5,156 nt of DNA from a virus. Lineage: Duplodnaviria > Heunggongvirae > Uroviricota > Caudoviricetes. A program made the position numbers and the translations under genes. Location of the stretch: IMG/VR virus record IMGVR_UViG_2740892258_000011. One strand, 5' to 3'. The notes beneath the pieces were generated by a model. It worked only from the letters and a program-made list of their open reading frames with translations. It was not told the DNA's origin and searched no databases. Numbering within the stretch: the stretch's first letter is position 1; every line of letters starts with the position of its first letter. Shown here piece by piece: positions 1 through 5,156 of the stretch.

Positions 1-631
<631 letters not shown>

Positions 632-870
632 TTACCGCCGCGCCATTTCGCGGATTGCCACAACCGGAAGCGCACGGTCGACGAAAATTTAACGACAGGC
701 TATCTATGAACCAGCTACCTCGCCGTGCGCTTTCGCGTTATGGTCTGACTTTTCAGGGAAATATCCTTTCAGTAAACTGTCAGTGCCGGATGCTCACCCG
801 TGTCCGGCGCACGCACTCCACCTCACCCGTGGAGAACTCCTTAATTACCAACCTTAGCTTCGTTGGTTAG

Positions 871-1699: not shown

Positions 1700-2338
1700 T
1701 TAAATATTTTGTTGAATTTTAAAGCATACGCCCAATATGCAAGATAGATCATCCAGCATAATTGAAGGGTAGCGAGGATTCGTGGGGACTAAAAGAATAT
1801 CCGGCCCTTCTATCTCCAGTTTACGAATGACAGGTGTTGTGGTCCCTTTGGGTAAGGCAAGGACAATATTTCCTGGTTGTACGGTTCGATCGGGATCAAC
1901 AAAAACTGTTGAACCATTTGGGATGGAAACTCCCCCACCAGATGTTGACATACTGTCACTCTCTAGAACAACTGCAAAGGTATTGGCCGGGATTTCTCCG
2001 ACAAGCTGCACACAAGAGGTTATTGAGGAATTTTTCATATAATCACTCCAGCTTGCTGCCTGCTGAAGTGATAGTAGCGGAACCGTTTTTATCGGCGGTA
2101 AAGATAGATCAAGCGAATCACCTGTATTTAACTCTCCTCCATTAAGAAGCCAATTTTCGTTTACTTTCAATATTTTTGCCAGTGAACTTATGTAACGCGA
2201 GGACGGCGCTCCTCCACCGTTCATCCATTGACTTACGGAGCCTTTTGATGCGCCAGTGGCATTGACAAGGTCTTTGCCTTTCAGGTTTAGCGCATGCATA
2301 CGTTGGGTTATGCGTTCAGATATTGTTTGCTTGTTCAT
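1700..2338 (-). CDS. CI-like prophage repressor: N-terminal HTH plus C-terminal LexA/S24-type autopeptidase domain (212 aa)
   Basis: C-terminal half aligns by eye to lambda CI: SDSM vs GNSM (catalytic Ser), VDPDRTVQPGN vs VDPEQAVEPGD, RKL vs KKL (catalytic Lys), NPRYP vs NPQYP. N-terminus has an HTH-like segment (GASKGSVSQWMNG). Divergent from the cro-like gene. Confidence 0.85.
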   Translation of the reverse strand: MNKQTISERITQRMHALNLKGKDLVNATGASKGSVSQWMNGGGAPSSRYISSLAKILKVNENWLLNGGELNTGDSLDLSLPPIKTVPLLSLQQAASWSDYMKNSSITSCVQLVGEIPANTFAVVLESDSMSTSGGGVSIPNGSTVFVDPDRTVQPGNIVLALPKGTTTPVIRKLEIEGPDILLVPTNPRYPSIMLDDLSCILGVCFKIQQNI

Positions 2339-2672: not shown

Positions 2673-2934
2673 ACACATCCGCATGGCGATGAATGCCTGG
2701 GCGCGTCCTGATGGCGAAAAAGTTCCGGCAGCTGGAATAACCCAGGCTTATTTTGAGTTGGGTATGACGTTTCCTGAACTGTACGACGACAGCCATCCGG
2801 AAGCCCTGGCTCGCAATACCCAGAAAATTTTCCGCTGGATAGAGAAAGACACCCCTGATGCAGTTGAAAAAATTCAGGCGTTGTTACCAGCGATCCCCGC
2901 CACAGGAAGAGACGGTGGTCAGCATTGCCGTTGA
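2656..2934 (+). CDS. YdaT-like / CII-position regulatory protein (92 aa), function uncertain
   Basis: ATG at 2656 preceded by a GGGGGG run; overlaps the cro-like gene by 17 bp. MKIKHEHIRMAMNAWARPDGEKVPAAG.... Family assignment is from memory and position (gene after cro). Confidence 0.45.
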   Translation: MKIKHEHIRMAMNAWARPDGEKVPAAGITQAYFELGMTFPELYDDSHPEALARNTQKIFRWIEKDTPDAVEKIQALLPAIPATGRDGGQHCR

Positions 2935-3259: not shown

Positions 3260-3634
3260 ATGCTCATAGATTTGGTTTTACCTTACCCGCCGACGGTGAA
3301 CACTTACTGGCGACGCCGTGGCAGCACATATTTTATCTCGGAGGAGGGAAAGCGTTATCGCCGGGCTGTGGCGCTTATTGTTCGCCAGCAGCGGCTGAAA
3401 TTAAGCCTGTCCGGAAGGCTGGCGATAAAGGTGATTGCAGAGCCACCGGATAAGCGTCGTCGCGACCTGGACAATATCCTGAAAGCACCGCTGGATGCGC
3501 TGACGCATGCGGGAGTGTTAATGGACGATGAGCAGTTTGATGAAATCAATATCGTTCGTGGTCAGCCAGTATCTGGTGGACGTATGGGGGTGAAGATTTA
3601 CCCCATAATGCATGAAGAGCAGGTCAAAAAATGA
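3260..3634 (+). CDS. rusA: RusA-family Holliday junction resolvase (124 aa)
   Basis: AGAGGTGA RBS before ATG at 3260. ...YPPTVNTYWRRRGSTYFISEEGKRYR...PPDKRRRDLDNILKAPLDALTHAGVLMDDEQ... aligns to E. coli RusA (PWPPSNNRYYRHNRG...PDRRRRDLDNLQKAAFDAL). Confidence 0.85.
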   Translation: MLIDLVLPYPPTVNTYWRRRGSTYFISEEGKRYRRAVALIVRQQRLKLSLSGRLAIKVIAEPPDKRRRDLDNILKAPLDALTHAGVLMDDEQFDEINIVRGQPVSGGRMGVKIYPIMHEEQVKK

Positions 3635-4452
3635 AACTGGAAGATTTACCGAAATACTACTCCCCAAAATCCCCTGGCCTGACCGATGCATCGGCCTCAA
3701 CGTCAAAAGATGCGCTGAGTATCACTGATGTGATGGCCGCGCAGGGCATGACACAGAATCGGGCTGAGATGGGGTTTTCTGCGTTCCTGGGGAAAATGGG
3801 CATCAGTATGAATGACAGGGCGCGGGCAACAGAATTACTGGCAGATTATGCACTCAGTCGGTGCGATCGTGTGGCGGCGTTGAGAAAACTTCCGGCAGAA
3901 ATAAAACCGGTAGTGATGCGCATTATGGCTTCGTATGCGTTTGAAGATTATGCCCGTAGCGCGGCGAGCAAAAAACAGTGCCCTTGCTGTCACGGAAAAA
4001 AATTTATTGAAAGCGAGGTTTTTACAAACAAGATCCAGTATCCGGATGGTAAGCCACCAGTGTGGGCAAAGTGCACAAAAGGCGTGTATCCGTCTTACTG
4101 GGAAGAATGGAAAAAAGTCAGGGAGGTGGTAAAAGTTGCCTGTCCGGAGTGTGGCGGAAAGGGTGAGGTTTCCACCGCCTGTAAGGATTGCCGTGGGCGT
4201 GGTGTCGCCATTCATCGTGAAGAGTCGGTAAAACGTGGTATGCCTGTTATCAGAGATTGCCAGCGTTGTGGTGGTCGTGGCTGTGAAAGGCTGCCATCAA
4301 CGGAGGCATTTAATGCCATATGCAAAGTGACGAGTGCTATCACGCTTGATACGTGGAAAAAATCAGTGAAACGCTTTTACGATACGTTGGTGGTTCGGTT
4401 TGACATTGAAGAGGCATGGGCGGAGCGGCAGTTAAAGAGGGTAACGCGATAG
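3631..4452 (+). CDS. Lambda-family late antiterminator Q with enlarged cysteine-rich region (273 aa)
   Basis: ATGA overlap with the rusA stop. N- and C-terminal blocks match lambda Q: YYSPKSP vs FHSPKSP, ITDVMAAQGM vs GTDVMAAMGM, YAFEDYARSAA vs FAYADYCRSAA, YDTLVV...RVTR vs YDALVV...AVTR. The central region carries four CxxCxGxG-like repeats where lambda Q has two. Confidence 0.8.
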   Translation: MKLEDLPKYYSPKSPGLTDASASTSKDALSITDVMAAQGMTQNRAEMGFSAFLGKMGISMNDRARATELLADYALSRCDRVAALRKLPAEIKPVVMRIMASYAFEDYARSAASKKQCPCCHGKKFIESEVFTNKIQYPDGKPPVWAKCTKGVYPSYWEEWKKVREVVKVACPECGGKGEVSTACKDCRGRGVAIHREESVKRGMPVIRDCQRCGGRGCERLPSTEAFNAICKVTSAITLDTWKKSVKRFYDTLVVRFDIEEAWAERQLKRVTR

Positions 4453-4454
4453 TG

Positions 4455-4500
4455 TTGTTGATTTTTCCCGAATCTGTGGTAAATTTGCTCTAACGATGGG
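4455..4500 (+). promoter_or_regulatory. PR'-like late promoter with qut-like element
   Basis: TTGATT (4458-4463), 16-bp spacer, extended -10 TGgTAAATT (4477-4485). Downstream GGTAAATTTGCTCTAACGATGGG closely matches the lambda PR'/qut sequence GGTAAATTTGACTCAACGATGGG as I recall it. Confidence 0.6.
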
Positions 4501-4534
4501 CGTTTTATGCCTGACGTTAGAAGATTTTTTACAC

Positions 4535-4556
4535 CCCGCCGCCTGGCGGGTTTTTT
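4535..4556 (+). terminator. Rho-independent terminator (tR'-like) about 45-60 nt downstream of the PR' start
   Basis: Stem CCCGCC (4535-4540), loop GCCT, stem GGCGGG (4545-4550), then TTTTTT (4551-4556). Confidence 0.7.
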
Positions 4557-4676
4557 ATGACTGAAATCGCGTCAGTACAGTAAACGCGCTGGTGGCGGTG
4601 AATACCTGTCTTTCAGCTTGCTGGCTTTTTCGACAAGAGTTATTGGTGTGTCACGTTAACCGGAAAAGGAAAAGAC

Positions 4677-4874
4677 ATGCTAAAACAGCAGGATATGACA
4701 GAAACCGCCAGAGTGGTGTTTAATGAATTAAGCGTTACCGACCCGGCGACAGTCGGGGAGATAGCGCAGAATACTTACCTTTCACGCGAACGCTGCCAGT
4801 TAATACTGACTCAGCTGGTTATGGCGGGTCTGGCAGACTATCAGTTCGGTTGTTACAGACGCCTTCCGCAGTGA
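4677..4874 (+). CDS. Small hypothetical protein (65 aa), possible winged-helix DNA-binding fold
   Basis: ATG at 4677 with AAGGA RBS 8-9 nt upstream. The segment VGEIAQNTYLSRERCQLILTQLVMAGLA looks like a recognition helix-turn-helix, loosely reminiscent of PapI/FaeA-type small regulators. No confident homolog recalled. Confidence 0.4.
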   Translation: MLKQQDMTETARVVFNELSVTDPATVGEIAQNTYLSRERCQLILTQLVMAGLADYQFGCYRRLPQ

Positions 4875-4885
4875 AGGCTTTTTTA
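4861..4885 (+). terminator. Rho-independent terminator overlapping the stop codon of the small ORF
   Basis: Stem GCCTTC (4861-4866), loop CGCAGT, stem GAAGGC (4873-4878), then TTTTTTAT. Confidence 0.6.
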
Positions 4886-4901
4886 TTTGTGGTAAATGGG
4901 C

Positions 4902-4932
4902 GGCTGGTGGGTGTTAGGGGCACCCACCAGCC
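4902..4932. repeat. Perfect 12-bp inverted repeat with 7-nt spacer (strong hairpin or palindromic protein-binding site)
   Basis: GGCTGGTGGGTG (4902-4913), ttagggg, CACCCACCAGCC (4921-4932); arms are exact reverse complements. No T-run follows, so not a canonical intrinsic terminator. Confidence 0.6.
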
Positions 4933-5024
4933 ATCTGCTCATGCGTCCGGATCACAAGCAAACCTCAGGCCCACTGCTTTGCGCAAAAGCAGAATGAGCC
5001 TATCAGAGACAGGCTTAATGATCC

Positions 5025-5156
5025 ATGCTTAATACTGTAAAAATATCCAGTTGTGAGTTAATCAACGCCGACTGCCTGGAATTTATCCGGTCGTTACCCG
5101 AAAATTCTGTTGACCTGATAGTCACGGACCCGCCGTACTTTAAAGTGAAGCCTGAG
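5025..5156 (+). CDS. DNA methyltransferase (N6-adenine/N4-cytosine class, DPPY motif), N-terminal 44 codons; truncated by window end
   Basis: MLNTVKISSCELINADCLEFIRSLPENSVDLIVTDPPYFKVKPE. The block SVDLIVTDPPY is the catalytic motif IV, closely resembling YhdJ/phage Dam-like enzymes (SVDLIFADPPY). Weak RBS. Confidence 0.7.
   Translation, partial: MLNTVKISSCELINADCLEFIRSLPENSVDLIVTDPPYFKVKPE

Follow-up and report, generated by a model that had tools for sequence, protein, structure and literature searches.

A probable lambda-type late promoter cassette next to a lambda-family Q gene in a remnant of a widespread E. coli prophage

Results and discussion

The features described below indicate that positions 4453-4560 of the window (the whole stretch of 5,156 nt of viral DNA that was analysed, IMG/VR record IMGVR_UViG_2740892258_000011) very probably make up the cis-acting half of a lambda-family Q antitermination cassette, whose Q gene lies immediately upstream. 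The cassette is an uncharacterised member of the textbook Q/PR'/qut/tR' class and comes from a very common E. coli prophage type.

The putative late promoter and its match to lambda

The 23 bases at 4478-4500 (GGTAAATTTGCTCTAACGATGGG) are identical at 19 positions to 44573-44595 of lambda NC_001416 (GGTAAATTTGACTCAACGATGGG). The first ten of them (GGTAAATTTG), which hold the lambda PR' -10 hexamer TAAATT, and the last nine (AACGATGGG), which correspond to lambda +1 to +9 and include the sigma-dependent pause hexamer, are the same in both, and all four mismatches fall at 4488-4491, in the 6-nt stretch between the -10 and +1. A pattern search allowing up to three mismatches misses a site that has four, and the mismatches were then counted by script. 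The spacing from -10 to +1 is 6 nt in the window and 6 nt in lambda; since register and spacing equal those of lambda, +1 was placed at A4492. The -10 and pause element is located 28-48 nt past the Q stop codon, in the exact register of lambda. The initial annotation had described this region as nearly identical to the lambda PR' -10/qut/pause region, which holds for the -10 and for the pause half of qut but not for the Q-binding region between the -35 and the -10.

The motif is short and could in principle resemble lambda by chance. However, this explanation is extremely improbable and can be considered as already refuted. The best score among 300 dinucleotide-preserving shuffles was 17/23, none of them reaching 19, and the binomial expectation of a 19/23 match over the window is about 1e-4; the second-best lambda match within the window is 15/23. 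Moreover, the motif sits in the right place after a lambda-family Q gene and is conserved in hundreds of genomes. Read at the level of sequence, the resemblance to lambda is real and the cassette is intact.

Regarding the promoter itself, the putative -35 hexamer of PR' (TTGATT, 4458-4463, plus strand) agrees with TTGACA in four of six positions and is kept in nearly all loci with this Q type. It lies 16 nt before the -10 hexamer TAAATT, which is identical to that of lambda PR' and belongs to an extended -10 (TGg plus the hexamer, 4477-4485, plus strand), the TG at 4477-4478 being read from the sequence. The two promoter hexamers match the consensus in 8 of 12 bases, and a generic promoter scan, which needs 9, made no call. 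A 10-nt repeat, TGTGGTAAAT, found at 4475-4484 and 4888-4897, was dismissed as chance-level in a 5-kb window; its second copy reads TAAATG, without the final T of the -10, and has no -35. A terminator-like scan call at 4486-4502 was also dismissed, because it lies across the start site and only part of it would be transcribed.

The putative +1 at A4492 opens the pause element, AACGAT followed by GGG (4492-4500, plus strand), and the pause would be expected at +16/+17 (4507/4508). Natural variants of the hexamer (AATGAT, AAAGAT, AACAAT, AACTAT, AATAAT and AATTAT) change only positions 3 and 4, and A2, A5 and T6, the residues important for a -10-like sequence, are retained in every variant. Loci with this Q (about 80) show hardly any change in the -35, the spacer or the -10, and none at positions 1, 2, 5 and 6 of the pause hexamer; its positions 3 and 4 vary, as do the six bases that precede +1. 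As far as an alignment can tell, this variation has the shape expected from purifying selection on cis sites.

In lambda, TTGACT serves as a -35-like site for the repositioned sigma region 4 (PMC9388147). The same register of the window holds TTGCTC (4485-4490, plus strand), which retains TTG, differs from lambda in its three last bases and agrees with TTGACA in three of six; the fourth mismatch to lambda is the single base separating TTGCTC from the pause element. Close relatives vary freely at this stretch (TGCCCT, CGTCAT, TTCCAC, CACCCT). Judged by its bases, the window's counterpart of the lambda sigma region 4 site is either degenerate or lacks conservation, and TTGACT is a feature of lambda's own that may not define the whole family. 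It can be added that the loading of Q may differ in detail from that of lambda, because this site is degenerate and not conserved in the clade.

The Q protein and its candidate binding site

The gene upstream of the promoter (3631-4452, plus strand) encodes a Q antiterminator of 273 aa. Its stop codon is at 4450-4452 and the -35 begins at 4458. PF03589, PF06530 and PF06323 are the families of Q-lambda, Q21 and Q82, respectively (Yin et al. 2022, PMC9388147). The window Q matches PF03589 with E 2e-49 (lambda Q itself gives 6e-58), and its best match in the PDB is the Q-lambda chain 7ubm (7UBM; E 2.3e-38), covering residues 1-113 and 182-273 of the window Q. Both matches bear out the initial assignment of this Q to the lambda family, and the homology to Q-lambda extends through the entire body and the C-terminal part.

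Where the zinc-ribbon 'arm' (residues 114-152 of Q-lambda) begins, the window Q has an insertion of 68 residues that brings in extra CxxC pairs. This long-arm architecture is common to the Qs of SfV, ST104, YeP1 and mEp237 (250-276 aa), and the long-arm Q is the commoner form. The window Q is 95% identical to the Q of the Stx2a phage Stx2_EH1910, and an identical protein is present in 6 of the 77 full-length Qs from IMG/VR viral contigs. Residue 218 is Cys in the window and in 33 of those 77 Qs and Tyr in the other 44; the equivalent residue is Tyr in lambda and EH1910 and Phe in SfV. By the count of these sequences, the Cys218 Q is a common natural allele.

The Q-binding element (QBE) of lambda lies between the -35 and the -10 (PMC9388147), and the same position in the window holds TTTCCCGAATCTGTG (4464-4478, plus strand). 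This spacer is conserved in window-type loci as TTTCC[C/G]GAAT[C/T]TGTG (TTTCC[C/G]GAATCTGTG), and is also kept in the mEp237 group, whose Q is 55% identical, and in Klebsiella phage Kpn_R1 (Q 62%). Erwinia phage EhrS_49 (Q 51% identical) shares it in part, as TTTCCCGAAACTG, and the spacers of the SfV, ST104, YeP1 and lambda cassettes differ from it. Cassettes whose Qs have 51-100% identity share the spacer of the window, and those of other Q subtypes have a different one; this is the pattern expected of a Q-binding site co-varying with its Q. Because it is conserved among Qs only 51-62% identical, it is regarded here as a candidate Q-binding site.

The terminator and the length of the leader

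The strong terminator noticed initially at 4535-4556 (plus strand) was confirmed by both scan and folding (-12.6 kcal/mol). It is an intrinsic terminator, equivalent to tR', of the form CCCGCC-GCCT-GGCGGG plus U6, in which 4535-4540 pair with 4545-4550 through six G:C pairs around a GCCT loop, followed by T6 at 4551-4556. The homologous hairpin carries a terminator annotation in phages SfV and Ayreon, and in an alignment of 42 leaders the cells of the terminator stem are 97.6% paired, with compensatory changes in three of five pairs.

Counted from A4492, the terminator reaches from +44, the first base of the stem, to +65, the last of the U-tract. It had been placed about 45-60 nt from the start site; a short transcript is still predicted, with a somewhat greater expected length of 65-67 nt. 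The predicted unmodified PR' leader RNA occupies 4492-4558 (plus strand) and scores 87.3 bits with the covariance model R1.

A leader of this size is far from unusual. Lambda-family Q loci were gathered from annotated phages and IMG/VR, giving 330 loci with 215 distinct downstream sequences, and 187 of these 215 contain a recognisable -10 and pause element. Among the 168 distinct cassettes with a pause element and a detectable terminator, the leader has an estimated length of 50-79 nt in 158, 90-109 nt in 8 and more than 200 nt in 2. In lambda the U-tract lies about 193-194 nt from +1. On this survey the short leader, of about 60-70 nt, is the usual layout and normal design of lambda-family Q cassettes, and the 194-nt 6S RNA of lambda is the exception.

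A promoter-proximal hairpin is not proof of efficient termination, because phage 933W has a similar hairpin with U7 at about +27 to +49 and yet the 3' end of its PR' RNA was mapped in vivo at +258 (PMC7547250). The hairpin at 4535-4556 would, in addition, end any unmodified early transcript reading through the Q gene, which is compatible with the switch.

Many Stx2 phages match the window only from 4535 on, that is, over the terminator, orf65 and the methylase, and in Stx2_EH2201 that module follows a 126-aa Q of the unrelated Q21 family with another promoter and pause region. The recombination joint between the Q/qut and the late-leader modules therefore sits at the terminator, and this position fits a Q-modified polymerase that is indifferent to the terminator it meets. 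A mosaic joint exactly at the hairpin, together with the recurrence of this terminator and its downstream module behind unrelated Q21-family Q genes in many Stx2 phages, could also mean that the hairpin is mainly the terminator of the early (Q) transcript or a module boundary, and that the lambda-like motif upstream is a promoter relic. Nevertheless, this reading is very unlikely, given that promoter, spacer and pause are conserved far above the neighbouring bases (about 80 loci, 1667 genomes) and that the way in which they vary is that of a -10-like element, which is not expected of a relic.

Proposed mechanism

The match to lambda, the family of Q, the terminator, the pattern of conservation and the broad distribution are shown by the sequences. 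The preferred reading of the segment, as a Q-dependent late switch, takes its start site, pause, Q binding and read-through from the lambda paradigm, from which we infer the following sequence of events. Sigma-70 RNA polymerase would start at A4492, guided by the weak -35 TTGATT, the 16-nt spacer and the extended -10 TGgTAAATT. Sigma region 2 would then re-bind the -10-like AACGAT (+1 to +6) on the non-template strand, and the complex would pause near +16/+17. Without Q, the polymerase would resume and stop at the hairpin and U6 (+44 to +65), releasing a leader of about 65 nt and leaving the late genes off (orf65 and the methylase and, in intact relatives, also the tRNAs, the cargo and the lysis genes). 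With Q present, the protein would bind the spacer TTTCCCGAATCTGTG and load onto the paused complex, and the Q-loaded polymerase would resist both the 4535-4556 terminator and the next one, at 4861-4884. In cassettes of this class, such read-through depends on Q and is stimulated by NusA.

Neighbourhood and state of the prophage

At the left end of the window (1-625) lie, on the minus strand, the 3' portion of yciU and the final ~80 codons of cls. Early lambdoid genes come next, including ydfC/ydfB/ydfA-like ORFs, a P22-Cro-like gene and a gene for a repressor of 212 aa with HTH and S24 domains (1700-2338, minus strand). Then come a fusion of a truncated YdaT-like ORF with the final third of a DUF968 gene, rusA and the Q gene. 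Past the terminator, the first gene encodes a 65-aa protein (orf65, phrog_331; 4677-4874, plus strand), with a Pfam match to TrmB at E 0.0044 that is below the curated cut-off. The second terminator (4861-4884) comes after orf65, and a DNA methyltransferase gene starts at 5025 and runs off the window at 5156 (plus strand; phrog_6025, E 5e-22). The gene order in relatives is orf65, methylase, three tRNAs, cargo (stx2 in EH1910 or other insert), a DUF6645 gene, holin and lysozyme.

Positions 1-625 match yciU-cls in B2-type strains, for example ATCC 11775, NU14 and ZJ3920, with 100% identity, and positions 620-2895 are 99.9% identical to the ompW-site prophage of those strains; in ZJ3920 the two pieces sit 11.9 kb apart. 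The first deletion took away the 5' portion of cls, some 6 kb of chromosome reaching to ompW and the left arm of the prophage (int, xis, exo, ydfD and dicB). In the K-12 gene order, the stretch of chromosome from cls to ompW includes kch, tonB and yciA-C. A second joint, at 2886-2895, removed the replication region, between ydaT and the last third of the DUF968 gene. The joints show overlaps of 6 bp and 10 bp, and neither junction is present in any of 5426 complete E. coli genomes; an exact-match scan of the genome_contigs set for the cls/prophage junction gave no hit either. By these alignments the element is what deletions have left of an ompW-site prophage. These results agree with the initial view that the element is defective elsewhere, now accounted for by two large deletions, and with its claim of an intact late switch in terms of sequence only, Q and the cis sites being common natural alleles.

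On the other hand, a cassette that is intact in sequence could be idle in such a remnant, either with Q unexpressed or inactive or with nothing useful downstream, and could survive only as a result of the deletions being recent. This is possible, albeit unlikely. The left arm from int to dicB, the ~6 kb of chromosome and the ydaT-DUF968 region are indeed lost, the absence of the junctions from the 5426 genomes suggests recent events, and flanks that are 99.9-100% identical to intact relatives imply little time for decay. However, no break is seen from the repressor and cro-like genes through the rightward operon to Q, so that derepression could express Q. In addition, the Q allele, including Cys218, is common in nature, and a genome may hold up to four cassettes, which could allow this Q, or its target, to work in trans with other prophages.

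Distribution of the cassette

With a coverage threshold of 80%, the 108-bp cassette (4453-4560) was found in 1667 of 5426 complete E. coli genomes (31%); 935 E. coli records match it with an identity of 99% or higher, and a single genome may contain up to four copies. Its carriers include 55989, O104:H4 and O157:H7 strains and the Stx2a phage Stx2_EH1910; in 55989 it occupies NC_011748 1110814-1110921 (plus strand). In a set of 80 viral-contig loci that carry this Q, the cis block of 120 nt recurs unchanged in 26 IMG/VR occurrences. None of the E. coli records listed has a RefSeq annotation at the site of the cassette, and the cassette sequence was not found printed in the literature searched.

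These findings add little to the Q/PR'/qut/tR' switch as such, which is textbook. The allele is nonetheless present in 31% of complete E. coli genomes and lies upstream of stx2 in at least one Stx2a phage. Since the allele is so common and would drive stx2 in at least one such phage, Q and its binding specificity bear on the cross-activation of co-resident prophages and on toxin output.

Structure of the leader RNA

The leader is predicted to begin with a 5'-terminal hairpin (4492-4518, plus strand; MFE -9.3 kcal/mol, z -3.0), formed by an AACG/CGUU outer and a GGGC/GCCU inner stem. It is followed by a single-stranded, A/U-rich linker of 16 nt, AGAAGAUUUUUUACAC (4519-4534, plus strand), which is unpaired in both the MFE and the centroid folds, and then by the terminator and UUUUUUAU. 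The whole 67-nt leader folds at -21.9 kcal/mol (z -2.45). Hairpins starting at +1 or +2 are likewise predicted for the leaders of lambda (-9.1 kcal/mol, z -3.4), SfV, YeP1 and mEp237, and that of the ST104 type begins at +9. A leader peptide (a 22-codon ORF with its ATG at 4496) was rejected: it has no ribosome-binding site, the ATG being at +5, and the ORF is not conserved, since relatives have ATA at this position or a frame that closes after two codons, as in lambda and mEp237 (ATGGGTTAA).

A covariance model built from 13 leaders recovered 42 leaders in 100 sources. In the alignment of these 42, which was fitted to the model, 96.6% of the cells are paired and double changes occur in 6 of 13 pairs; the two stems of the 5' hairpin have 94.5-97.6% of their cells paired, with few double changes. 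The observed pairing values were reached by none of 500 shuffles, and slid controls were 30-48% paired. RNAalifold on a plain MAFFT alignment of 33 leaders was uninformative (3 pairs), with the terminators and the mEp237-type hairpins out of register. The support for the 5' hairpin comes mostly from G:C to G:U changes, and the 5' strand of its outer stem is constrained regardless by the pause element at the DNA level. Compensated changes are seen in deeper clades (AAGG/UCUU in YeP1-type leaders, AACA/UGUU in L131), and in the clade of the window itself most of the recent point variants at pause positions 3 and 4 lack a compensating change. A cousin of the leader was found after ydfT/quuQ in the Qin prophage of K-12 (60.7 bits; NC_000913 1642422-1642356, minus strand), where it is unannotated. 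The Rfam search of the whole window at E<=1 gave no match at the leader and two chance-level matches elsewhere.

Besides its part in the switch, the leader could be a trans-acting small RNA like StxS, constitutive in lysogens, stabilised by its 5' hairpin and bound by Hfq via the AGAAGA/U-rich linker and the U-tail. StxS derives from the terminated PR' transcript of the Stx phages Sp5, Sp15 and 933W, of 258 nt, which is processed by RNase E to 74 nt, and it is a regulatory sRNA (Sy et al. 2020, PMC7547250). Antitermination-regulated promoters have also been proposed as a general source of sRNAs, citing lambda 6S and the short late-leader RNAs of phages 21, phi80, 82 and P22 (PMC7547250). This role of the leader is favoured by that precedent, by a shape typical of Hfq-dependent RNAs (a hairpin at the 5' end, then an unpaired A/U-rich linker, then a terminator ending in a U-tail), by the conservation of the two-hairpin structure and by the Qin cousin. 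Nevertheless, it is rather improbable. The fixed 5' half of the outer stem is explained by the pause element, the recent changes at pause positions 3 and 4 go mostly uncompensated, and the pairs were counted on an alignment fitted to the model. The linker, moreover, differs between clades in sequence and length, which argues against a conserved seed, the leader has no Rfam match, and blastn against the 933W PR'-tR' region gives only a 22-nt match, in the terminator hairpin.

More speculatively, and with low probability, the leader of about 65 nt could represent a widespread family of constitutive regulatory RNAs, present in about a third of E. coli genomes and with its cousin in Qin, that acts in trans like StxS, or else its 5' hairpin could have a mechanical function in Q antitermination, for example by holding the threaded RNA so that it does not slide backwards through the Q nozzle. 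In this reading the 5' hairpin contains the RNA of the pause element and the linker is of ARN/U-rich type. If this were true, the leader would be more than a by-product of the switch. Being short, unannotated, structurally conserved and outside any Rfam family, it could be sought at little cost in Term-seq, RIL-seq and Hfq-CLIP data already available for E. coli.

Comparison with known systems

The order of Q gene, promoter, pause element and terminator in the window is the layout described in PMC9388147. One close reference is lambda, whose Q belongs to the same family (PF03589) and aligns over lambda Q residues 1-113 and 116-207. Both systems share the -10 TAAATT, the 6-nt spacing from -10 to +1, AACGAT plus GGG, a 5'-terminal hairpin and an intrinsic terminator that follows it. 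The differences lie in the Q protein, which in the window has the 68-aa arm insertion with extra CxxC pairs and is 39% identical to that of lambda, in the Q-binding spacer, which is unrelated in sequence, in TTGCTC instead of TTGACT, and in the leader, of ~65 nt versus ~193-194 nt for 6S RNA. Unlike lambda, the window promoter also has the extended -10 TG and a 16-nt spacer.

SfV, mEp460, Ayreon and the K-12 Qin prophage (ydfT/quuQ) likewise encode long-arm lambda-family Qs (250-276 aa), with the pause element AACGATGGG as in the window. Their leader is homologous, with a 5' hairpin and a terminator at about +45 to +66, and BLAST gives 78% identity from window position 4489 on. However, their Q is 44% identical and they differ in the -35 (TTGCAT), the spacer (TTTTCAAAAAATATGGA) and the -10 (TAAGAT or TAAAAT); these differences therefore imply a different Q-binding specificity.

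With StxS, the window leader has in common that both would be by-products of a constitutive, Q-regulated late promoter halted by a downstream terminator. Both cassettes are also upstream of a cargo region able to hold stx, the window type preceding stx2 in Stx2_EH1910. On the other hand, the Q of 933W belongs to the Q21 family (PF06530), unlike the window Q, and a regulatory role has been demonstrated for StxS, whereas the window leader is a prediction from sequence and fold.

Finally, in the cassettes of the Q21 family (phage 21, Stx2_EH2201) the Q is unrelated (PF06530, 126 aa), and the promoter and pause region differ from those of the window. Q21 binds a direct-repeat site as a dimer (PMC9388147). 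The functional logic is nevertheless the same, and EH2201 shares with the window the downstream terminator, orf65 and the methylase.

Mosaic organization of the late control region

The predicted intrinsic terminator of the PR' leader RNA (window 4535-4556) and everything downstream of it, that is, the 65-aa ORF orf65 and the start of the methylase gene, are also found in Stx2 phages that carry an unrelated Q of the Q21 family. The shared segment (window 4535-4680) corresponds to positions 1301-1447 of Stx2_EH2201, and the terminator hairpin is the exact position of the mosaic joint with these phages.

Concerning the region between orf65 and the methylase gene, a second intrinsic terminator (GCCTTCCGCAGTGAAGGC followed by T6) is located at window 4861-4884, overlapping the orf65 stop codon. 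The methylase gene would be reached only if Q-modified polymerase read through this terminator. Furthermore, a strong 12-bp hairpin, GGCTGGTGGGTG-N7-CACCCACCAGCC, lies at window 4901-4935 and lacks a U-tract; it gave a weak, sub-threshold match to Rfam P26 on the minus strand (E = 0.41).

The 10-nt sequence TGTGGTAAAT occurs twice in identical form: at window 4475-4484, where it forms the extended -10 of PR', and at 4888-4897, just past the second terminator, where it reads TAAATG, a poor -10. The repeat is probably due to chance.

The Q protein

The Q encoded here contains 68 residues (114-181, window 3970-4175) that lambda Q lacks; they are inserted where the zinc-ribbon arm begins and include additional CxxC pairs. 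Most of the lambda-family Q proteins sampled (250-276 aa) share this insertion. Residue 218 (window 4282-4284), at the end of the Q arm, is Cys, the equivalent residue being Tyr in lambda and Stx2_EH1910 and Phe in SfV. Among 77 close relatives of this Q, 33 carry Cys and 44 carry Tyr; therefore, the Cys/Tyr difference is a natural polymorphism.

Deletion joints

At about 620-625 (window 600-640), a truncated cls is joined straight to prophage DNA beside ydfC, with an overlap of 6 bp at the joint. Compared with ZJ3920, an E. coli strain with a prophage at ompW, 11.9 kb are absent here: the remainder of cls, the chromosome as far as ompW, and int, xis, exo, ydfD and dicB of the prophage. In the K-12 gene order, the lost chromosomal stretch contains kch, tonB and yciA-C. 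A search of 5426 complete E. coli genomes and of the species-representative genomes did not find this joint. Prophage DNA of about 245 bp (window 626-870) separates the junction from the ydfC-like ORF. In K-12 Qin, DicF lies in the ydfC-dicB interval; neither DicF nor any other Rfam family matched window 626-870 at E ≤ 1.

A second deletion joint was observed at window 2886-2895, where a truncated YdaT-like ORF runs into the final third of a DUF968 gene. The overlap is 10 bp, and approximately 5.9 kb were removed, comprising replication and hokD-region genes present in ZJ3920.

Comparison with Qin and 933W

An unannotated SfV-type PR'/pause/leader/terminator cassette is located directly after ydfT (quuQ) in the K-12 Qin prophage. 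Its leader (NC_000913 1642356-1642422, minus strand; 10357-10423 of the extracted region, L345) was matched by R1, a covariance model built from 13 PR' leaders, with 60.7 bits (E = 1e-11).

Regarding 933W, a hairpin followed by U7 at about +27 to +49 of its PR' transcript (L346 3727-3749) resembles the terminator described here. Published in vivo mapping, however, places the 3' end of that transcript at +258 (PMC7547250). Either the 933W hairpin is leaky or the short product was missed.
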